DNA of 64,000 nt from Lachnospiraceae bacterium. GTDB lineage: Bacteria; Bacillota; Clostridia; Lachnospirales; Lachnospiraceae. A program made the translations under genes and the position numbers. Each line of letters starts with the position of its first letter. Position 1 is the first letter of the stretch. The stretch lies in NCBI GenBank assembly GCA_017546025.1, contig JAFYYS010000035.1:27809-91808 (forward strand), in the 5' to 3' direction. Shown here one piece after another: positions 24,132-42,010 of the stretch. The notes below the pieces were generated by a model, which saw only the letters and a program-made list of their open reading frames with translations, made no database searches and was not told the DNA's origin.

Positions 24132-24215
24132 GCAGTTGTGGCGGAATTGGCATACGCGCATGATTCAGGTTCATGTCCATGTACTTGGGTGTGGGTTCAA
24201 GTCCCATCAACTGCA
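24132..24215 (+). tRNA. tRNA-Leu (anticodon CAG), type II with long variable arm
   Basis: Acceptor GCAGTTG/CAACTGC, anticodon stem CATGA/TCATG with loop TTCAGGT, T-arm GTGGG-TTCAAGT-CCCAT, discriminator A. No CCA is encoded. Confidence 0.9.
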
Positions 24216-24222
24216 CAAAAGA

Positions 24223-32590: not shown

Positions 32591-33502
32591 ATGTATAACA
32601 ACGATTGGGAGCAACTGAACAAGACAAGAAAGCAGCTGGTATTACTCGGCATAATCGGAACGATCCTGCTTGTTGCGGGACTGATTCTGCCGATTGTATT
32701 CATGGCGAAGCATCCGCTTTTCTTTAATCCGTTCATGATTCTTTTCGGCATGGTTCCCGGAGCAATCTGCTGGCTGATTTTCGGCAAAGGCAACTCCGGC
32801 TACCGGAAGGATTACAAGGCGCTTGTGGTGAACCGAGCCGCGACCGGCATGTTTGACGAGTACAGCTACTACGCGGGCATGGGTTTTGATTACCGGGAGA
32901 TTCAGGCCACCGGCATCATGTACATGGGCAACCGGTATAAGAGTGAGGACCTCGTGGAAGGACGCTACAAGGGCGTTCCGTTCCGCCGTGCCGACATGTA
33001 TATCGCACAGCATACCTCGAGCGGTAAGAGCAGCCATACGACCGTATATCTGCGCGGAACGTGGATGATTTTCTCCTACAACAAAGCATTCGTTTCCGAT
33101 GTGCAGGTCATGTCCAAGGCTTTCGGGTTTTCCAATAAGAAGACGAGCCGCCTGTTTACGAGAAGCGGAGACCGCCGTCATAAGCTCGAGACGGAGGACG
33201 TGGAGTTCAACAACATGTTCAACGTGACCTGCCAGAACGATTCCGAAGCATTCTACCTGCTGACGCCCCGCGTCATGCAGATGCTGAAGCTGCTGCAGGC
33301 CGACTTCATGCATCCGTTCATGGTCGGATTTGTCAACAACGCCCTGCATATCGCCGTCAACACCGGCAAGGATTCGATGGAACCGTCGGTTTTCAAGGCA
33401 CTGAAGCCCGAGCTTGAGATTGAAAAGACCCGCCGCGAGCTGAAGGCAATCTGTAACGTCATCGACGCGCTGGCAATTGACCGGGATATTTTCAAGGAGT
33501 AA
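32591..33502 (+). CDS. Two-TM membrane protein, DUF3137-like, paralog 5 of 6
   Basis: ATG after AGGAGG, 14 nt after the paralog-4 stop. Blocks: GRYKGVPFRRADM, GTWMIFSY, TEDVEFNNMFNVTCQNDSEAFYLLTP. Confidence 0.85.
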   Translation: MYNNDWEQLNKTRKQLVLLGIIGTILLVAGLILPIVFMAKHPLFFNPFMILFGMVPGAICWLIFGKGNSGYRKDYKALVVNRAATGMFDEYSYYAGMGFDYREIQATGIMYMGNRYKSEDLVEGRYKGVPFRRADMYIAQHTSSGKSSHTTVYLRGTWMIFSYNKAFVSDVQVMSKAFGFSNKKTSRLFTRSGDRRHKLETEDVEFNNMFNVTCQNDSEAFYLLTPRVMQMLKLLQADFMHPFMVGFVNNALHIAVNTGKDSMEPSVFKALKPELEIEKTRRELKAICNVIDALAIDRDIFKE

Positions 33503-33506
33503 ACGG

Positions 33507-34535
33507 TTGAAAGACTATTCGATGATAACGCCCGAGGCATTGACCGAGGAGGCGCGGAAAATTGCAAAACACTCGGACAGAGCCCCGTTCATTGCGCTTG
33601 GGCAGCTCACCCTGCTGGGAATTCCGTTCCTGCTGTTGTGCATGGGAGTGCTGCCTCCAATCCCGTTTGTCGTGGCATTTGCCATCGCATTAATCCTTGT
33701 CGGCGTGACTGCCATATTCGGGCATGACCGGCAGAAGGAGTACGATGAGCGGCAGAAGGAACTGGTTGTTGCGTTCAAGTCGCTGGTTGTGAACCATGCC
33801 GCGCAGGAGCTGTTCCATCATTATTCCTATGACATGGAAAATGGCATCGCAGAGGAAGACATTCCGCTCAACGAAGTGCTGCCGTATTCCTACTTCGGAA
33901 GAAGCACGAATCTGCTGACCGGCTTCTACCGGGGTGTCGAATTCCGGCGCGCCGATCTTGAGGCAAGTGCAGCCTCGACGCATGTCAACTTTTATTCGAC
34001 GAACCGTGTCTTTCTCGGACAGTATATTGATTTCCCGTGTCCTGTGAAGTTTTCCTCGACGCTTTATATCTACACAAAGGACATGCTTGACGATATCGAG
34101 CGGAAGACCTTCCTGTATTCCGGGAACACGCGCGGGGAGATGTATTATGAAACGGGTGATGAGGCGTTTGATAAGAAATTCCGTTGCCTGACTACCGATC
34201 AAACTGAGGCGGAGACGCTTCTTACTCCGGAGTATGTCAGAAGCATTGTGAAGCTTTCAAACCTGATTAAGGATTGGTTTGTGATTGGCTTCAAAGAAGG
34301 CAGAATCTTTCTTTTGATTGACACCGGCACGGACCATCTGGAGCCGCCGAAATACCTCGGTTATATCGACAAAATGGACATGGATTACGAGATGGAGCGC
34401 GCGGTGAAAACGTTACAAACGGTGTGCGATGCCATTGACCGGCTGGCCCGTCCGAGCGAGGAGAAAACCCCGCCTGAGACAAATGTGATCGATGAACTTG
34501 AAAGCTACTGGAAAGAGGGAACACCGACCGTCTGA
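33507..34535 (+). CDS. Two-TM membrane protein, DUF3137-like, paralog 6 of 6 (most divergent)
   Basis: Blocks: GFYRGVEFRRADL and TGDEAFDKKFRCLTTDQTEAETLLTP. The start is uncertain: TTG 33507 lies 7 nt after AAGGAG, and ATG 33522 is the alternative. Confidence 0.75.
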   Translation: MKDYSMITPEALTEEARKIAKHSDRAPFIALGQLTLLGIPFLLLCMGVLPPIPFVVAFAIALILVGVTAIFGHDRQKEYDERQKELVVAFKSLVVNHAAQELFHHYSYDMENGIAEEDIPLNEVLPYSYFGRSTNLLTGFYRGVEFRRADLEASAASTHVNFYSTNRVFLGQYIDFPCPVKFSSTLYIYTKDMLDDIERKTFLYSGNTRGEMYYETGDEAFDKKFRCLTTDQTEAETLLTPEYVRSIVKLSNLIKDWFVIGFKEGRIFLLIDTGTDHLEPPKYLGYIDKMDMDYEMERAVKTLQTVCDAIDRLARPSEEKTPPETNVIDELESYWKEGTPTV

Positions 34536-34565: not shown

Positions 34566-34594
34566 TTGACAAGCGGCGGGAAAGGTCTTATAAT
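34566..34594 (+). promoter_or_regulatory. Consensus sigma-A promoter (TTGACA-17 nt-TATAAT)
   Basis: TTGACA at 34566-34571, a 17-nt spacer, and TATAAT at 34589-34594. Confidence 0.8.
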
Positions 34595-34600
34595 GTGCCT

Positions 34601-34886
34601 AATTTTACAACTTCATATCGTTCAAAGGCTGTGACGAAGACGGTCTCGGGAACGCATTTTCAGAGAGCCGGTGGTTGGTGTGAACCGGTATTGCAGAACG
34701 AATCGACCTATCCCTTCCGAGCTGAAGGTCTGAACCCCTTGTGGAAAGTAAGAACTTCCGTGATTGCCGCGTCAAGGCATAGGATTTGTTGGAATCCGAA
34801 GAGTGGCGTACAGTGTACGCAAGTTGAGTGGTACCGCGGGTGAAAGGCTCGTCTCAAACGTTCGTTTGGGGCGGGCTTATTTTATT
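34601..34886 (+). promoter_or_regulatory. T-box riboswitch leader (tRNA-sensing transcription attenuator)
   Basis: - Stem I has a GA/K-turn (GUGACGAAG...CUUCCGAGC), an AGAGAG bulge (34662-34667) and a distal loop GGUUGGUGUGA.
- The T-box sequence AGUUGAGUGGUACCGCGGG lies at 34822-34840, with a UGGU bulge.
- The antiterminator is GAG[UGGUACC]GCGGG...CUCGUCUC.
- It competes with a 13-bp terminator (34847-34876) followed by UUAUUUUAUU. Confidence 0.85.
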
Positions 34887-34946
34887 GCCTCAGGGAACAC
34901 AACCTTTCAGAGAATCACTCAACAAAAAACAAAGGAGAGTAAAACA

Positions 34947-37211
34947 ATGGGAGACATGGATCTGAAGCTTAAGGAAGTCGCCGCACGTATCCGCGAGATG
35001 CGTGAGATCGCAGGCTTTACCGAAGGCGAGATGGCAGACAAGACGGATGTCAGCGTGGAAGAGTATGTGGCTTATGAGGCCGGCGAAACGGATATGCCGT
35101 TTACGTTCATTCATAAGTGCTCGCTCGCATTTGACGTCGAAATGAGCGCTTTGCTTGAAGGCCATACGGCAAAGCTTACCAGCTACACCGTAACGAGAAA
35201 GGGCGAAGGTCAGATCACTTCCGAAGAGGAAGGCATCCTGATCAAGAACCTTGCTTCCAACTTTAAGAAGAGACTCGGTGAGCCCTACTGGGTTCGCTAT
35301 GAATACTCCGCCGAGCAGCAGAAGAAGCCGATTCATCTGACCAAGCACAGCGGTCAGGAATTCGATATCGTCATGAAGGGCTGCCTGAAGGTTCAGGTCG
35401 GTGAGCACACCGAAATCCTGCACGAGGGCGACAGCATCTTCTACAACAGCTCGACGCCGCACGGCATGATTGCCATCAACGATCAGGACTGTACCTTCAT
35501 CGCAGTCGTACTGCCCGGTGAGGATGTCGGCGAGAAGGAAATCGTCGATACGCTTGTGGAAGGCCGTACCGCGAAGAAGAGCTTCGTCTGTGACAAATTC
35601 ATCAAGACTGTCGAGGACGAAAAGGGCCGCCTGAAGTCCATCGATTTCGTAAACGAAGAGAAGTTCAACTTCGCCTATGATGTTGTTGACGCCATCGCGA
35701 AGAAGAATCCCGAGAAGCTTGCGATGATTCATCTGGACCGCGACAAGAACGAGAGACGCTTCACATTCCTTGACATGAGTAAGAAGAGCGGCCAGGCCGC
35801 AAACTACTTCAAGTCCCTGGGCATCGAGCCCGGCGACCGCGTCATGCTTGTATTGAAGCGCCATTACCAGTTCTGGATCAGCATGCTTGCGCTTCATAAG
35901 ATCGGCGCAATCGCAATCCCGGCTACTTATCAGCTTCAGGAGCATGACTTTGAGTACCGTTTCAAGTCCGCAGGCGTTAAGGCAATCGTTTGTACCGGCG
36001 ACGGTGATACCGCCAACCAGGTTGATCTTGCGGCACCGCGCTGTGAGACACTGATCCACAAGATCTGTGTCGGCGCTCCGAGAGAAGGCTGGCGCAACTT
36101 CGATGAAGAGTATGTGATGTACAGCTCGCATTTCGACCGCGTCGAGAACAGCCCGTGCGGTTCCGACCGTTTCATCATGTTCTTCACCTCCGGCACGACC
36201 GGTTATCCGAAGATTGCGTGCCATTCCTACAAGTACGCGCTCGGTCATTATGTAACCGCCAAGTACTGGCATCAGGTTGAGCCTGACGGCCTGCACCTGA
36301 CCATTTCCGATACCGGCTGGGGTAAAGCGCTTTGGGGCAAGCTGTACGGCCAGTGGCTGTGCGAAGCACCCGTTTTCGTATATGACTTCGACCGCTTCCA
36401 TGCAGAGGACATCCTGCCGCTGTTTGCACAGTACCATATCACGACGTTCTGCGCACCGCCCACGATGTACCGCATGCTGATCAAGGAAGACATCAGCAAA
36501 TACGACCTCAGCTCGATTGTGCATGCAACGACCGCCGGTGAGGCCCTTAACCCCGAGGTTTACAACGTCTTCAAGGAGAAGACCGGTCTCCGCATCCACG
36601 AGGGCTTCGGTCAGACCGAGACAACGCTTGTCATCGGTAACCTGTACGGCGAGAAGCGCAAGCTCGGATCCATGGGTAAGCCTACGCCGCAGTATCATGT
36701 CGACATCCTCGATCCGGACGGCAAGCCCGTACCGGTCGGCGAGAACGGCGAGATCTGCATCTACACAAACGACAAGACGCCCTGCGGACTGTTCCGCGGC
36801 TACTATAACGATCCCGAGCGCACGAAGGAAGCGTGGCATGACGGCATCTATCATACCGGCGACGTCGCGTGGAAGGACGAGGACGGCTTCTACTGGTATG
36901 TCGGCCGTATCGACGACGTCATCAAGTCGTCCGGCTACCGTATCGGACCGTTCGAAATCGAAAGCGTCATCATGGAACTTCCGTATGTGCTTGAGTGCGG
37001 TGTCAGCGCCGCCCCCGACCCGATCCGCGGCCAGGTTGTAAAGGCAAGCATCGTATTGACAAAGGGTACACAGCCCTCCGATGAGCTCAAGAAGGAAATC
37101 CAGGATTACGTTAAGAAGCACACAGCACCTTACAAGTACCCGCGTATCGTTGTCTTCATGGATGAACTTCCGAAGACCATCAGCGGCAAGATTCAGAGAA
37201 ACAAACTGTAA
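34947..37211 (+). CDS. Fusion protein: XRE-type HTH plus cupin domain (N-terminal ~190 aa) fused to an AMP-forming acyl-CoA synthetase (ACSM/MbcS-like)
   Basis: - N-terminus: KEVAARIREMREIAGFTEGEMADKTDVSVEEYVAYEAG (HTH), then a cupin (HSGQEFDIVMKG...GDSIFYNSSTPHG).
- The remainder has FFTSGTTGYPK (A3), TAGEALN, EGFGQTET, YHTGD and SSGYRIGPFEIES adenylation motifs.
- It is one uninterrupted ORF. ATG 34947 follows AAAGGAGAG. Confidence 0.85.
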   Translation: MGDMDLKLKEVAARIREMREIAGFTEGEMADKTDVSVEEYVAYEAGETDMPFTFIHKCSLAFDVEMSALLEGHTAKLTSYTVTRKGEGQITSEEEGILIKNLASNFKKRLGEPYWVRYEYSAEQQKKPIHLTKHSGQEFDIVMKGCLKVQVGEHTEILHEGDSIFYNSSTPHGMIAINDQDCTFIAVVLPGEDVGEKEIVDTLVEGRTAKKSFVCDKFIKTVEDEKGRLKSIDFVNEEKFNFAYDVVDAIAKKNPEKLAMIHLDRDKNERRFTFLDMSKKSGQAANYFKSLGIEPGDRVMLVLKRHYQFWISMLALHKIGAIAIPATYQLQEHDFEYRFKSAGVKAIVCTGDGDTANQVDLAAPRCETLIHKICVGAPREGWRNFDEEYVMYSSHFDRVENSPCGSDRFIMFFTSGTTGYPKIACHSYKYALGHYVTAKYWHQVEPDGLHLTISDTGWGKALWGKLYGQWLCEAPVFVYDFDRFHAEDILPLFAQYHITTFCAPPTMYRMLIKEDISKYDLSSIVHATTAGEALNPEVYNVFKEKTGLRIHEGFGQTETTLVIGNLYGEKRKLGSMGKPTPQYHVDILDPDGKPVPVGENGEICIYTNDKTPCGLFRGYYNDPERTKEAWHDGIYHTGDVAWKDEDGFYWYVGRIDDVIKSSGYRIGPFEIESVIMELPYVLECGVSAAPDPIRGQVVKASIVLTKGTQPSDELKKEIQDYVKKHTAPYKYPRIVVFMDELPKTISGKIQRNKL

Positions 37212-38581
37212 TGAAGCATCCGAATTATGACATTCCCGGGATTCCGGAAGGATACGAGGTATTCTTCCGGATGACCCGTAAGTGCAGACTCGAAACGGTT
37301 GATGAAGCAGACGAAGACGAAGATTCCATGAAAGACTGGAAGTATGACCGTCTCCACAACTACATCAAACAGCGTGACGGAAAAGGAAACGTATATGTTT
37401 ATCGCATCCGGGAGGACAATACCTGTACCTGCGAGCGTTGGTTCATGAAGGACGGCGCAAGGTACTGCGAGCCCGGCGCTGTGTTTGATCCCGGTATCGA
37501 GATTGTGTTTCAGGAAACGGACCGGGAAAGCTGGGAGTATGATGAGCGCGGCAACTGCGTGACATTTATCACAAAAGGGAAAGACCGCTGGCTGAACACC
37601 TATGATGCAAAGAACCGGGTCGTTTCGGAAAAAAGGTATTTTTCCGACGGGCTTTTATGGGCCGATAAGGGATATGCCTACAATGAGGACGGCACCCTGC
37701 GTGAGTATTATGAGGACATGCTCGATATTCAGAACGGGCACGGCGATTATCATACGATGCATTACAAAAAGACGGTTCCCGAATACGACAGTACGGGCCG
37801 GACGGTTTCCGAGCATTCGTATGACCGGGAAGGCAAGCTGATCGGGCAGATGTATTGGGAGCCGGGCGGGAAGGTTCAGATCTCGACAAAGAACCAGTTC
37901 GAATATTGGCAGGTCCGCTCAAGAATTGAGCATGACGACGAAGGAAGAGTCATCTCGGACGACTTTGAGCTGAACGGAAAGCCGCAGTCAAGGACCGAAT
38001 ACGAGTACCGTGACGACGGCAGCTACACCGAGCGCAGGTACATTGCAATCATGGAGAGAGACAATGAGCTGCTGCTCCGTGAAGAAAAGACGTTTGATAA
38101 GGCCGGCAGGAGGACCGCCTGGATTGAATACGGTTACAACAGTAAGAGAGTATACGAAGCCTTTTATCAGGAGTATGACGAAGAAGGCAATCTGACCAGA
38201 ACGGTTCGTAAGACAATAACCGGGACAAAGCCGCAAAAGGAAGAAACCTATATCGTTCTTTTCGGCACGGTCGGAGGCTTCAAACACGACCGTCTGCGGG
38301 TTAAGGAATACGAGATCCGGGACGGGAAGGCAGGAAACGTCACCGAATACAAGTATTTCTTCCCGGATGAGAACACCGTGATGCAGTTCAGCATCAAAAA
38401 CGGCGAAGTCCGGTTCGTGGAAATCTATGAATATGACAGCTACGGAAACCTGCTTGCCCGGTACTCGGCGAGTGGCTCGGGGAGGTACGGCAAAGCCTTC
38501 GAATACACGCCTTTTGTTGCGCCCAAGGGGCGGTTCACGAAAGAGGACCGCGATGAAGAGCACCACAAGGTGGTGAGTTAA
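37211..38581 (+). CDS. Cytoplasmic protein with YD/RHS-like repeats (no signal peptide or TM)
   Basis: Its start overlaps the upstream stop (TAATG). Repeats: WEYDERGNCV, YDAKNRVV, YNEDGTLR, YDSTGRTV, YDREGKLI, HDDEGRVI, YDEEGNLT, YDSYGNLL. Confidence 0.75.
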   Translation: MKHPNYDIPGIPEGYEVFFRMTRKCRLETVDEADEDEDSMKDWKYDRLHNYIKQRDGKGNVYVYRIREDNTCTCERWFMKDGARYCEPGAVFDPGIEIVFQETDRESWEYDERGNCVTFITKGKDRWLNTYDAKNRVVSEKRYFSDGLLWADKGYAYNEDGTLREYYEDMLDIQNGHGDYHTMHYKKTVPEYDSTGRTVSEHSYDREGKLIGQMYWEPGGKVQISTKNQFEYWQVRSRIEHDDEGRVISDDFELNGKPQSRTEYEYRDDGSYTERRYIAIMERDNELLLREEKTFDKAGRRTAWIEYGYNSKRVYEAFYQEYDEEGNLTRTVRKTITGTKPQKEETYIVLFGTVGGFKHDRLRVKEYEIRDGKAGNVTEYKYFFPDENTVMQFSIKNGEVRFVEIYEYDSYGNLLARYSASGSGRYGKAFEYTPFVAPKGRFTKEDRDEEHHKVVS

Positions 38582-38650: not shown

Positions 38651-39322
38651 ATGGATTTTAAGCGTTTGGTGCTCTTTGCGGGGCATTACGGCAGCGGAAA
38701 AACAAATATTGCGGTCAATGTGGCAATCGACCTTAAAAAAGAGGGGAAGAATGTTGTCATTGCGGACCTCGATATCGTGAATCCGTATTACCGGACGAAG
38801 GACAGCGAGCAGGAGCTTGAGGCGGCGGGAATTCCGCTGATCAGTTCCGAATACGCGAATTCGAACGTCGATGTACCGGCACTTCCGCAGGCCCTTTATT
38901 CCCTGGTCGATCAGAAGGACCGTTACGGGATCATGGATATCGGCGGCGACGACCGCGGCGCTTTGGCGCTCGGGCGGTATGCTCCGGCAATCCTTGAGGA
39001 GAACAACTACGAAATGCTCCTCGTCATCAACAAGTATCGTCCGCTGACTCCGGATGCGGCAAGCACCCTGGAGGTCATGCGTGAGATAGAAATCGCGGGC
39101 GGGATTCCGTTCACCGGGATTGTGAACAACTCAAATCTCGGAAGGGAGACGACCGCGGAGGATGTCATCAAAACCCACGCCTACGCCATGGAAATGGCTG
39201 AGGACACGGGGCTGCCGCTTCGGATGACGACCGTTAAGGAAGACATCGCGGAAGAGGTGGCGAAAGTAATTCCGAATGTCGTACCGCTAAGGTTACAGAA
39301 CAAACGGCTTTGGAATGACTGA
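38651..39322 (+). CDS. P-loop NTPase, MinD/CooC-like (SIMIBI class)
   Basis: Walker A FAGHYGSGKTN at residues 9-19, VIADLD switch-like motif, MDIGGDD Walker B-like motif. Confidence 0.6.
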   Translation: MDFKRLVLFAGHYGSGKTNIAVNVAIDLKKEGKNVVIADLDIVNPYYRTKDSEQELEAAGIPLISSEYANSNVDVPALPQALYSLVDQKDRYGIMDIGGDDRGALALGRYAPAILEENNYEMLLVINKYRPLTPDAASTLEVMREIEIAGGIPFTGIVNNSNLGRETTAEDVIKTHAYAMEMAEDTGLPLRMTTVKEDIAEEVAKVIPNVVPLRLQNKRLWND

Positions 39323-39383: not shown

Positions 39384-39593
39384 ATGAACAAAGTAACGTT
39401 CAACACGGACCTTTGTAAGGGCTGCGGCCTCTGCGTGGCAGCCTGCCCGAAGAAGATTCTTCGGATGTCGGAGACGGTCATCAATGCGAAGGGCCATCAT
39501 CCGGCGGAAATGACCGACCAGTCCCAGTGTATCGCGTGTGCATTCTGCGCAACGATGTGCCCGGATTGCGTAATTACGGTGGAAAGGGGTTAA
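39384..39593 (+). CDS. 2-oxoacid:ferredoxin oxidoreductase delta subunit (2x[4Fe-4S] ferredoxin)
   Basis: 69 aa with CKGCGLCVAACP and CIACAFCATMCP cluster motifs. Confidence 0.9.
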   Translation: MNKVTFNTDLCKGCGLCVAACPKKILRMSETVINAKGHHPAEMTDQSQCIACAFCATMCPDCVITVERG

Positions 39594-39597
39594 GAGC

Positions 39598-40665
39598 ATG
39601 GCAGATAAAGTATTGATGAAGGGCAATGAAGCCATTGCCGAAGCCGCCATTATGGCCGGCTGCCGATTCTATTTCGGCTATCCGATTACGCCCCAGACCG
39701 AGGTTGCCGCATACATGGCAAAGCGTATGCCCAAGATCGGCGGAACCTTCCTTCAGGCAGAGAGCGAAATTGCAGCAATTAACATGTGTATCGGTGTTGC
39801 TTCTACCGGTAAGAGAGTTATGACGAGCTCCTCAAGCCCCGGAATCTCCCTTAAGGAAGAGGGCATCAGCTACATGGCAGGATGCGACCTTCCGGCGCTG
39901 ATTGTTAACGTTGAGCGTGGCGGCCCGGGTCTCGGCGGCATTCAGCCTTCCCAGTCCGACTATTTCCAGGCTACCAGAGGCGGCGGACACGGTGACTATC
40001 ACCTCTTCGTTGTTGCTCCGGCAAGCGTACAGGAGATGGTAAGCCTTACCGCTCATGCATTTAACGTAGCTGAAAAGTACCGCGTTCCCGCGATGCTTCT
40101 TGCCGACGGTACGCTCGGTCAGATGATGGAGCCTGTTTCGATTGAAGGCATCACCGTTGAGGACCATGACAAGTCCTGGGCTCTCACCGGAACGGACTGC
40201 AAGAGAAAGCACAACATCATCAACTCCCTGTCCCTGCTTCCCGAGGAACTCGAGCAGTGGAACCTGGAGCGTTATAAGAGATACGAGAAGATCGAAGAGA
40301 ACGAGCCCATGTGGGAAGAGTACATGACCGAGGACGCAGACATCTGTGTTGTTGCATTCGGTATCGCATCCCGCGTAAGCCGTAACGCCATCAAGGCTGC
40401 ACGTGCACAGGGCATCAAGGTCGGCATGATCCGTCCGATTACCCTTTGGCCGTTCCCGAAGAAGCCTCTTGCCGCTATCGCTGACAAGGTTAAGGCTTTC
40501 GTAACCGTTGAGCTTAACATGGGCCAGATGGTTGAGGACGTTGAGCTTGCAACCCGCTGCAAGAAGCCGGTTCTCATGGCGAACCGCGTAGGCGGCTGCA
40601 TCCCGACTCCCGAGCAGGTACTTGCTCAGATTGTCGAAGCCAATAAGTTAGGAGGTGCACAGTAA
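39598..40665 (+). CDS. 2-oxoacid:ferredoxin oxidoreductase alpha subunit (VorB/KorA-type)
   Basis: MKGNEAIAEAAIMAGCRFYFGYPITPQTE... is the typical OFOR alpha N-terminus. 355 aa. Confidence 0.9.
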   Translation: MADKVLMKGNEAIAEAAIMAGCRFYFGYPITPQTEVAAYMAKRMPKIGGTFLQAESEIAAINMCIGVASTGKRVMTSSSSPGISLKEEGISYMAGCDLPALIVNVERGGPGLGGIQPSQSDYFQATRGGGHGDYHLFVVAPASVQEMVSLTAHAFNVAEKYRVPAMLLADGTLGQMMEPVSIEGITVEDHDKSWALTGTDCKRKHNIINSLSLLPEELEQWNLERYKRYEKIEENEPMWEEYMTEDADICVVAFGIASRVSRNAIKAARAQGIKVGMIRPITLWPFPKKPLAAIADKVKAFVTVELNMGQMVEDVELATRCKKPVLMANRVGGCIPTPEQVLAQIVEANKLGGAQ

Positions 40666-41417
40666 TGGGTGAGATTGTATTTCAGAAACCGAAGTCACTG
40701 TGTGACGTTCCGCTTCATTATTGCCCCGGCTGCACGCACGGTATCGTGCACCGTCTCGTTGCGGAAGCAATCGACGAGCTCGGCATTGAGGGCAAGACCA
40801 TCGGCGTAGCCAGCGTAGGCTGCTCCGTATTTACCTACAACTATTTCGAGTGTGATATGGTTCAGGCCGCACACGGACGTGCTCCGGCTGTTGCTACCGG
40901 CGTGAAGAGAAGCGATCCTTCTAAGATTGTTTTCACGTACCAGGGCGACGGCGACCTTGCTTCCATCGGTACTGCTGAGACCGTTCATTCGGCTGCACGT
41001 AACGAGAACATCACCATCATCTTCATCAACAACGCCATTTACGGCATGACCGGCGGTCAGATGGCTCCTACCTCCCTTCCGGGGCAGGTAACCCAGACTT
41101 CTCCTTACGGCCGTGACGTTAACACCGTAGGTTATCCGGTACGCATCTGCGAGATGCTTTCGCAGCTCGAGGGTCCGACGTATCTGGAGCGTGTTGCCGT
41201 GAACAACGTAAAGAACGTTAAGGCAGCCAAGAAGGCCATCAAGAAGGCTTTCGAGAACCAGGTAGAAGGCAAGGGCTTCTCCCTCATCGAAGTTGTTTCC
41301 ACCTGCCCGACCAACTGGGGCAAGACGCCTGAGAAGGCTATGGAGTGGCTCGAGGAGAACATGCTTCCTTACTATCCGCTCGGCGTTTACAAAGACAAGA
41401 CGAAGGAGGAGAAGTAA
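40665..41417 (+). CDS. 2-oxoacid:ferredoxin oxidoreductase beta subunit (TPP-binding)
   Basis: YCPGCTHGI and GDGDLASIG TPP motif, then NNAIYGMTGGQ. The start overlaps the alpha stop. Confidence 0.9.
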   Translation: MGEIVFQKPKSLCDVPLHYCPGCTHGIVHRLVAEAIDELGIEGKTIGVASVGCSVFTYNYFECDMVQAAHGRAPAVATGVKRSDPSKIVFTYQGDGDLASIGTAETVHSAARNENITIIFINNAIYGMTGGQMAPTSLPGQVTQTSPYGRDVNTVGYPVRICEMLSQLEGPTYLERVAVNNVKNVKAAKKAIKKAFENQVEGKGFSLIEVVSTCPTNWGKTPEKAMEWLEENMLPYYPLGVYKDKTKEEK

Positions 41418-41418
41418 A

Positions 41419-41958
41419 ATGGCACAGACCGGTATGCTTTTTGCAGGTTTCGGCGGACAGGGCATTCTGTTCTCCGGCAAATTCTGCGCTTACGACGGCT
41501 TGATTTCCGATAAGCAGGTCAGCTGGCTTCCTTCCTACGGCCCTGAGATGCGCGGAGGTACCGCAAGCTGCAGCGTTGTATTCAGCGATGAAATCATCGG
41601 CTCCCCGATTGTTACGAACCCTGATATCCTCGTTGTCATGAACCTTCCTTCCCTTGACAAATACGAAGCTTCTGTCGTTCCCGGAGGTAAGATTTTCTAT
41701 GATTCGACCCTCATCGGACGCAAGGTTGCAAGAACCGACGTAACGGCTTATGCCGTTCCCGCCACGAAGCTTGCTGCCGACAACGGAATGCCTACGCTTG
41801 CCAACATGATTCTCGTAGGTAAGATGATCAAGGAAACCGGCATCATCTCGACCGAGAACATCGACAAGATCATTGACAAGATTGTAAGTGCCCGCCATCA
41901 GGACCTCAAGGAACTGAACGCTAAGGCAATCAAGATGGGATTTGACTACGCTGAGTAG
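41419..41958 (+). CDS. 2-oxoacid:ferredoxin oxidoreductase gamma subunit
   Basis: [16 protein letters not shown] and [11 protein letters not shown] motifs. ATG 41419 follows GGAGGAG. Confidence 0.9.
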
Positions 41959-41978: not shown

Positions 41979-42010
41979 CCGCACAACCGGTAACGGCTGT
42001 GCGGTTTTTT
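41979..42010. terminator. Bidirectional terminator shared by the oxidoreductase operon and the convergent BI-1 gene
   Basis: CCGCACA / TGTGCGG stem with AAAAAAA upstream and TTTTTT downstream. Confidence 0.8.

Follow-up and report, generated by a model that had tools for sequence, protein, structure and literature searches.

An isoleucine T-box leader in front of an acyl-CoA synthetase/2-oxoacid:ferredoxin oxidoreductase operon of a Lachnospiraceae bacterium, and its probable role in isoleucine salvage

Background

Isoleucine T-box leaders (Rfam family RF00230) of Firmicutes are found in front of ileS and ilv-leu type operons. They contain a K-turn, a specifier loop with the codon AUC, an AG bulge, a distal loop, a Stem II with an S-turn and a Stem III. 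An antiterminator with a UGGU bulge competes with an intrinsic terminator, and the supply of the cognate amino acid is controlled in this way. A leader with all of these features is present in a 64,000 nt stretch from a Lachnospiraceae bacterium (GenBank assembly GCA_017546025.1, contig JAFYYS010000035.1, positions 27,809–91,808 of the forward strand); the whole stretch is termed the window here. The leader was first noticed from the sequence as a T-box in front of an acyl-CoA synthetase gene, and that reading is referred to below as the original prediction. The ileS leader of the same genome also reads AUC.

It has been known since the 1960s that rumen and gut anaerobes need or use branched short-chain acids (isoacids) for isoleucine, valine and leucine, and isoacids are fed to ruminants for this amino-acid-forming use. 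Labelling work by Allison, Bryant and Robinson in the 1960s reportedly showed that rumen anaerobes reductively carboxylate branched-chain and aromatic acids to amino acids. The enzymes of the 2-ketoisovalerate:ferredoxin oxidoreductase (VOR) class interconvert branched acyl-CoA plus CO2 and branched 2-oxoacids. Two acyl-CoA synthetases are relevant to the locus described here. MacsMa from Methanosarcina acetivorans prefers 2-methylbutyrate, and makes and releases 2-methylbutyryl-CoA (PMC10455477). MbcS from Staphylococcus aureus activates 2-methylbutyrate and isobutyrate, and isovalerate hardly; it is documented as a supplier of primers, which it makes from exogenous 2-methylbutyrate and isobutyrate (PMC10026030).

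In the literature searched, neither genes nor control logic were found for the route from isoacids to amino acids. A T-box linked to acyl-CoA synthetase or VOR genes was likewise not found in the full-text literature searched, which did not extend to a 2008 comparative-genomics paper on T-boxes in the journal RNA that could list such targets. CoA and ferredoxin enzymes do not appear in a T-box target survey published in BMC Genomics in 2008.

Results and discussion

The T-box leader

Model score, architecture and covariation all identify the RNA as a canonical T-box that acts by transcription attenuation, and its specifier is the isoleucine codon AUC. The unit under its control is a 7.4-kb operon, not a lone acyl-CoA synthetase gene. 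This operon probably constitutes a salvage route in which isoleucine is rebuilt from 2-methylbutyrate and CO2, a reading for which homology, the genes nearby and the loss of genes are the grounds; the antitermination steps are those of the established T-box mechanism. The leader and operon features given below are all on the forward strand.

Positions 34622–34859 represent a full-length match to RF00230 (covariance model positions 1–219) with a score of 102.7 bits, compared with a gathering score of 93 bits, and an E value of 1.5e-21. The original prediction had proposed this covariance model (CM) search, and each of the T-box hallmarks listed there is found at, or very near, its assigned position. 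Stem I (34627–34722), as delimited by CM alignment and covariation, consists of a basal GC/GC helix, a K-turn, the specifier loop, an AG bulge and a distal loop. In the CM alignment the two halves of the GA/K-turn are UGUGAC (34630–34635) and CGA (34718–34720), which flank the helix GAAG/CUUC (34636–34639 and 34714–34717). The helix above the specifier loop is GGUC/GACC (34642–34645 and 34705–34708) and displays compensatory changes. The AG bulge is AGAGAG (34662–34667) and the distal loop is GGUUGGUGUGA (34673–34683); we infer that these two segments form the platform for the tRNA elbow. Stem II (34724–34758) has an S-turn motif with GAA at 34732–34734 and AGUA at 34747–34750, and the Stem III hairpin GCGUAC-AGU-GUACGC (34806–34820) is present in the CM alignment as well as in the minimum free energy (MFE) fold. 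Stems II and III align to RF00230, with the Stem IIA/B pseudoknot being outside the scope of the CM.

The antiterminator (34824–34857) has a folding energy of -9.1 kcal/mol and carries the 7-nt T-box bulge UGGUACC at positions 34829–34835, which confirms the bulge from which a tRNA with discriminator A73 had been deduced. U34832 would pair with A73, and the UGGU bulge fits a tRNA with this discriminator, as is the case for tRNA-Ile. The T-box/antiterminator segment UUGAGUGGUACCGCGGGU shows no variation in 26 orthologous leaders. The intrinsic terminator (34845–34886), identified by terminator scan, consists of a stem at 34845–34878 and a U-tract to position 34886. It has a folding energy of -22.2 kcal/mol (z -6.45), and none of 200 shuffled sequences is equally stable. 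The segment CUCGUCUCA (34848–34856) is the 3' strand of the antiterminator and also lies within the 5' arm of the terminator. This strand sharing and the U-tract are as first described, but the terminator stem has 15 pairs and not 13. The difference in energy between terminator and antiterminator indicates that termination is the default state and that read-through needs a ligand. Folding the leader as a whole by MFE gives no information (z 0.07), which is expected because the switch needs tRNA.

Of the 26 leaders in the orthologous set, 25 belong to the genus of the source genome and one to another genus of the family. The Stem I structure was written by hand and then tested by pair counts against shuffles and slid controls. 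In these 26 orthologues, which provide 25 distinct sequences, 89% of cells are paired and there are double changes in 13 pairs. On four of five measures none of 500 shuffles reaches the observed value; on the remaining one, pair types, 11 do. The slid controls are 20–44% paired, and the agreement is well above what chance would give. Among 147 distinct relatives, whose alignment was fitted to the model so that its covariation has to be read with this caveat, 91.9% of cells are paired and double changes are found in 23 of 23 pairs. The distal helix is 97–99% paired in the two sets, with compensatory changes. The alignment of orthologous leaders, which had been suggested as a check, thus reveals covariation of Stem I in both sets. 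RNAalifold, when applied to a MAFFT alignment of the 26 Stem I sequences, recovers the distal helix alone, with the variable helices out of register.

The leader is preceded by a sigma-70 promoter (34566–34594) with TTGACA at 34566–34571, a 17-nt spacer and TATAAT at 34589–34594. It matches the consensus at 12 of 12 positions, in agreement with the earlier reading, and the promoter scan gives one perfect TTGACA-17-TATAAT site there. TTGACA and TAYAAT are both kept in the orthologous leaders.

The specifier codon

The 3' side of the specifier loop is U-AUC-C (34709–34713), with AUC at 34710–34712, and the 5' side is AC (34640–34641). AUC had been the best guess of the original prediction. It is without variation in 26 of 26 orthologous leaders and in 71 of 71 more distant leaders upstream of orthologous synthetases, 97 leaders altogether, with variable flanks. 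The base 5' of the codon is T, A or C among the 26 orthologues, and U, A, C or G across all compared leaders. The base 3' of the codon is C in 23 of the orthologues and A in three; in the window it is C, so that the usual purine is indeed missing, as had been pointed out. The specifier loop has no AGUA/GAA S-turn: AGUA is a deletion in the CM alignment, and nothing but AC is left on the 5' side. This S-turn is a common but not universal feature of T-boxes. The other T-boxes of the source genome carry it, the ileS leader among them, and the compact loop is also found in the isoleucine, valine and leucine sister leaders described below.

By the rule of TBDB (PMC7778990), the specifier is the triplet at -4 to -2 relative to the 3' strand of the helix that closes the specifier loop. 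This register reads the correct codon in six leaders from the source genome (valS, tyrS, thrS, ileS, pheS and trp), and AUC is at -4 to -2 before CUUC in the 34622–34859 leader. That the specifier is instead CUA (Leu), CCU (Pro) or UAU (Tyr), with another tRNA sensed, has a negligible probability: the C after AUC and the atypically small loop do make placement by eye uncertain, but these codons, of which CCU and CUA had earlier been left open, are excluded because the preceding base varies while AUC never does, and in addition the register-setting helix GGUC/GACC covaries, the register is correct in the six leaders of known target, and the sister leaders have GUA/GUC and CUC/CUG at the same position.

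The operon

The first gene (34947–37211), which has the ribosome binding site AAGGAGAG at 34932–34939, encodes a protein of 754 aa. Pfam analysis shows it to be a fusion of an XRE-type helix-turn-helix domain (HTH, residues ~13–70), a cupin domain (~130–187) and an AMP-forming short/medium-chain acyl-CoA synthetase (~232–754). Its best NCBIfam family is MbcS (NF047394), with a score of 444.4 bits that is below the equivalog cut-off of 850. A score so far under the cut-off means that the enzyme is not orthologous to MbcS but is a related synthetase for short branched-chain acids. The closest relative with a solved structure is MacsMa (PDB 3ETC; 645.9 bits), and the identity is 55% over 520 columns of the catalytic part. 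The enzyme is thus a candidate 2-methylbutyrate-CoA ligase. The basis for this preference is homology, i.e., the identity to MacsMa and the membership in a clade that is always found behind AUC T-boxes.

The genes for a four-subunit 2-oxoacid:ferredoxin oxidoreductase of the VOR type are at positions 39384–41958. The delta subunit (39384–39593, 69 aa) is a 2x[4Fe-4S] ferredoxin-like protein, which scores below the cut-offs of the NCBIfam PorD_KorD/OGOR_delta families and is assigned with the help of its conserved position. The alpha-type subunit (39598–40665, 355 aa) has the Pfam domains POR_N and PFOR_II and matches NF005507 ("3-methyl-2-oxobutanoate dehydrogenase subunit VorB") with 537 bits, compared with a cut-off of 399. 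The TPP-binding beta subunit (40665–41417, 250 aa) is recognized by Pfam TPP_enzyme_C and by NCBIfam families of 2-oxoacid:ferredoxin oxidoreductase beta subunits, and the gamma subunit (41419–41958, 179 aa) by Pfam POR and its translation. All 15 genus loci that span enough DNA have the gene order synthetase, P-loop protein, VOR delta, alpha, beta and gamma. The operon is closed by an intrinsic terminator at 41979–42010 (-24.1 kcal/mol, z -6.45), which was read from the sequence and missed by the terminator scan.

The P-loop gene (38651–39322) encodes a 223-aa NTPase of the SIMIBI class (Pfam CbiA/ParA) and is located between synthetase and VOR in all 15 genus loci and also in distant loci. 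Its motifs GHYGSGKT and DLDIVNPYYRTKDS are without variation. A PDB sequence search gives just a P-loop match to RecA. The AF2 model has a pLDDT of 78.5, and the top Foldseek matches are NTPases such as SRP54/FtsY and ATPase-type HypB with a TM score of ~0.55, a fold search that places the protein at the level of the SIMIBI class only. That it might help to mature or assemble the iron-sulfur enzyme is a guess.

The HTH-cupin module (~230 N-terminal residues) has no sequence relative in the PDB. Near the promoter no operator-like conserved palindrome for the fused HTH is seen by eye in the leader alignment, on which no formal search was done. Elsewhere in the source genome (G000:C31:86945–89229) there is a stand-alone synthetase (51% identical) with an ORF of ~190 aa directly upstream that encodes an HTH-cupin protein (36% identical to residues 7–188). 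This unfused locus has no T-box. It suggests that the HTH-cupin module may be a functional partner of such synthetases.

A further ORF of 456 aa (37211–38581) has YD-type repeats (YDxxG...) with a weak Pfam match to RHS_repeat, and its start overlaps the stop codon of the synthetase gene (ATGA). No PDB relative was found by sequence search. The ORF is missing between the synthetase and P-loop genes in 14 of 15 genus loci, and a homologue with 33% identity is present in one other species; as a member of the conserved operon it is therefore rejected, and it represents a lineage-specific insertion. Two adjacent paralogous DUF3137 genes (32591–34535; 303 and 352 aa) come immediately before the T-box promoter and have the same orientation.

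Related leaders and synthetase clades

A scan of species-representative genomes with a synthetase alignment gave at least 596 related stretches, of which the best 80 were analysed. All 80 are from metagenome-assembled genomes (MAGs) of uncultured Clostridia from rumen, hindgut and faeces, with labels that include Oscillospiraceae, Acutalibacteraceae, Ruminococcus, Christensenellaceae and similar ones. A Stem I covariance model built from the 26 leaders finds 149 Stem I elements in these loci. Each of them has a T-box-like motif, as defined by a loose pattern and mostly UGGUACC, no more than 260 nt downstream. The specifiers are AUC in 71, GUA in 44, GUC in seven, CUC in 16 and CUG in eight elements, and three are misaligned. 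The readable specifiers are branched-chain codons without exception.

There is a one-to-one association of the specifier with the synthetase clade. The HTH-cupin synthetase is downstream of the AUC (Ile) specifier in 71 of 71 cases. With GUA or GUC (Val) it is a paralogous HTH-cupin synthetase, followed by the P-loop gene, VOR and often IlvE (44 of 51, the remainder being mostly cut by contig ends). With CUC or CUG (Leu) it is leuA, which is usually followed by a synthetase fused to a TIM barrel (23 of 24). The association between specifier and genes was checked by Pfam at one locus (L070). When 119 synthetases are placed in a tree, there is one change of the Ile/Val label, with a support of 100; the mean for shuffled labels is 33 changes, and none of 500 shuffles is as low. 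The 754-aa synthetase of the window is placed in the clade with the Ile specifier, and its identity to the enzymes of one MAG is 70% for the Ile type and 59% for the Val type.

Many of the related MAGs (L061–L140, e.g., L070:8675–20145) have tandem Ile and Val T-boxes, one for each of two adjacent paralogous synthetase genes, and a Leu T-box upstream of leuA is found nearby in such MAGs, sometimes in divergent orientation. Most of the difference between AUC, GUC/GUA and CUC/CUG, which share one loop position, is in the first base, a pattern that suggests duplication and then specifier switching. More distant full-length homologues of the synthetase (G043 with 54% identity, and paralogues with 42–47%) have no T-box within the DNA examined, so the association is confined to one clade and does not extend to all HTH-cupin synthetases.

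The source genome

The source genome, that of a gut or rumen member of the Clostridia, has 2.2 Mb in 36 contigs and is 98.7% complete. No match to ilvC (TIGR00465) or ilvD (TIGR00110) is found in it or in 15 of 18 genus mates; outside the family but within the order, 10 of 12 genomes have both genes, and 14 of 14 control genomes are positive. A leuA query also finds no match in the source genome. One class-IV, IlvE-like aminotransferase is kept, outside the operon. With the canonical pathway missing, this enzyme would have no 2-oxoacid supply unless there is another route. Three members of the genus (G004, G006 and G014) have adjacent ilvC and ilvD genes alongside the T-box/synthetase/VOR operon, so that part of the genus combines de novo synthesis with salvage.

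Ten T-box matches are found in the source genome. One of these (100.4 bits), with the specifier CUC (Leu), is upstream of a single gene of 840 aa (L141:145–2947, which is G000:C13:122044–124846). The gene product is a xylose-isomerase-like TIM barrel (AP_endonuc_2) fused to an AMP-forming acyl-CoA synthetase, and it is a candidate isovalerate-activating enzyme. Another T-box (106.1 bits) is upstream of genes for a PaaK-like phenylacetate-CoA ligase and an ACT-domain protein (L142:9731–11826 on the minus strand, which is G000:C14:28730–30825). Comparison with the tyrS leader makes UUC (Phe) the best reading of its specifier, although UCC would follow from the CM register. With this reading the locus looks like the aromatic counterpart, from phenylacetate to phenylalanine. 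The VOR behind the Ile T-box is the sole close VOR of the genome, where the next match is 24% identical.

ARAGORN detects 33 tRNAs in the 36-contig assembly but no tRNA-Ile gene, and none is present in the related loci examined. The genome assembly also lacks genes for tRNA-Phe, tRNA-Tyr and tRNA-Asp by the same analysis. The missing genes are probably located in unassembled rRNA/tRNA clusters. A tRNA-Leu(CAG) gene is present in the window at positions 24132–24216.

Proposed mechanism and alternatives

In the proposed mechanism, a sigma-70 promoter of constitutive appearance would drive transcription of the T-box leader. With charged tRNA-Ile(GAU), the 15-bp terminator would form and transcription would stop at about position 34886. 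With uncharged tRNA-Ile, the anticodon would pair with AUC and the free NCCA end with UGGU; the weaker antiterminator, stabilised by the tRNA, would then let RNA polymerase read into the operon. The fused acyl-CoA synthetase would convert exogenous 2-methylbutyrate to 2-methylbutyryl-CoA, and the four-subunit VOR would combine this product with CO2 by reductive carboxylation, at the expense of reduced ferredoxin, to give 2-oxo-3-methylvalerate. A class-IV aminotransferase encoded elsewhere would complete the route to isoleucine. The predicted components of the route are in place in that synthetase and VOR are together in the operon behind the Ile T-box, one IlvE-like gene is found elsewhere in the genome, and in relatives IlvE is inside the operon. 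Together with the absence of ilvC, ilvD and leuA, this composition points to an unconventional biosynthesis or salvage of isoleucine under ordinary T-box logic. The gene class is unusual for T-boxes, as originally stated, and was not met in the literature; the framing as genes outside amino-acid biosynthesis finds no support, since the operon includes a VOR. With the three canonical genes absent, the operon may be the only isoleucine source of the organism, and it is probably essential in a genus without the de novo pathway.

Several observations weigh against the salvage of isoleucine from 2-methylbutyrate. The substrate preference of the synthetase rests on the 55% identity to MacsMa and a sub-threshold match to MbcS (444 vs 850 bits), and sequence does not reveal the direction in which VOR works. 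The T-box operon does not include the transaminase, and the absence of ilv and leu genes from a MAG is never fully certain. The match of anticodon and discriminator cannot be checked in the source organism, as the assembly contains no tRNA-Ile gene. The leader itself has C instead of the usual purine after the codon and no AGUA/GAA S-turn in the specifier loop, two properties that recur in other apparently functional leaders. Finally, the Leu-T-box synthetase is without its own oxidoreductase and would also need the VOR, which a model with one amino acid leaves unexplained.

This last point, together with the presence of one T-box HTH-cupin synthetase and one close VOR in the genome and the lack of a Val-type paralogue in the genus, leads to an alternative with broader substrates, in which the sole synthetase and VOR also make valine from isobutyrate, and VOR takes isovaleryl-CoA for leucine, while only tRNA-Ile is sensed. 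The acceptance of both 2-methylbutyrate and isobutyrate by MbcS is in accord with it, and so is the need for a source of valine and leucine where ilvC, ilvD and leuA are absent. However, the Ile- and Val-linked synthetases of relatives are clean separate clades, as expected of specialised enzymes; the window enzyme is closer to the Ile type by the identities given above, and valine and leucine may be imported. This alternative is considered unlikely.

It is equally improbable that the Ile T-box controls an operon that supplies 2-methylbutyryl-CoA as primer for anteiso fatty acids when isoleucine is scarce, with VOR as an accessory or oxidative enzyme. MbcS, the best NCBIfam family of the synthetase, has such a role, and the acyl-CoA formed could serve both uses. 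Against this, VOR is in the same transcription unit in 15 of 15 loci, IlvE is found downstream of VOR in many relatives, and an oxidative VOR would destroy the precursor of isoleucine just when tRNA-Ile is uncharged. Moreover, T-boxes sense tRNA charging, which is a signal from protein synthesis, and a genome that has lost ilvC, ilvD and leuA but kept IlvE needs another source of 2-oxoacid. Primer supply is possible as a side use of the operon.

A catabolic operon, in which isoleucine is transaminated, decarboxylated oxidatively by VOR and released as the branched acid, is very unlikely: VOR-type enzymes are reversible and serve many anaerobes in the oxidative fermentation of amino acids, branched-chain ones included, but induction by uncharged tRNA-Ile is the opposite of a degradative need, AMP-forming synthetases run toward the acyl-CoA thioester and conserve no ATP, and for a genome with no de novo synthesis the degradation of scarce isoleucine would be self-defeating.

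Beyond the salvage of isoleucine from 2-methylbutyrate, a wider picture can be drawn tentatively. The genus would have lost the de novo branched-chain pathway and would live on isoacids cross-fed by neighbours, with the operon as its sole isoleucine source. The operon would be one module of a tRNA-gated regulon that turns acids into amino acids, with sister synthetases for isoleucine and valine, a TIM-barrel-fused one for leucine and a PaaK-like ligase for phenylalanine. The XRE-HTH/cupin part would be a second ligand-sensing layer that acts by feedback inhibition or DNA binding. This is speculative, and it is less probable than not that all of it holds.

Comparison with known systems

Relative to the literature searched, the acyl-CoA synthetase/VOR regulon is new; the RNA itself, apart from its compact specifier loop, is that of an orthodox T-box. 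The target that looked odd makes sense within a regulon in which tRNA charging would gate the conversion of branched fermentation acids to branched-chain amino acids by salvage. Any T-box labels the genes behind it with the amino acid that they supply, here isoleucine, and at the sister loci, in front of sister enzymes, valine and leucine. The locus thereby offers gene candidates in the form of paralogue-specific acyl-CoA synthetases, VOR, IlvE and the conserved P-loop NTPase, and it predicts a dependence on isoacids in a genus without ilvC, ilvD and leuA. With respect to RNA biology, it reveals a T-box lineage with a minimal specifier loop, in which the specificity has apparently been switched among AUC, GUC/GUA and CUC/CUG.

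The leader differs from known isoleucine T-boxes in that the specifier loop is compact (AC on the 5' side and N-AUC-N on the 3' side), has C or A after the codon, and is without the AGUA/GAA that the ileS leader of the same genome carries. It also differs from them in its target, an acyl-CoA synthetase/VOR operon. The catalytic part of the synthetase resembles MacsMa over those 520 residues; unlike MacsMa, the window enzyme has an additional N-terminal XRE-HTH and cupin region, and its gene is under a T-box beside VOR. MbcS differs from the window enzyme in that it feeds fatty-acid primers and has neither T-box control nor a link to VOR; its very low use of isovalerate mirrors the separate Leu-linked synthetase of the source genome.

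The delta/alpha/beta/gamma organisation of the window genes, with an alpha subunit above the VorB cut-off, is like that of the 2-ketoisovalerate:ferredoxin oxidoreductases of anaerobic archaea and bacteria. Most discussion of characterised VORs treats them as oxidative, whereas the isoleucine-starvation signal in the window argues for the reductive, carboxylating direction. The predicted chemistry, 2-methylbutyrate plus CO2 to isoleucine, is the same as in the rumen work of the 1960s; there are parallels for isobutyrate, isovalerate and phenylacetate, and the relatives are rumen and hindgut MAGs. That work was biochemical and provided no genes or regulation, whereas the present proposal, made from sequence alone, includes genes as well as a regulator that senses tRNA.

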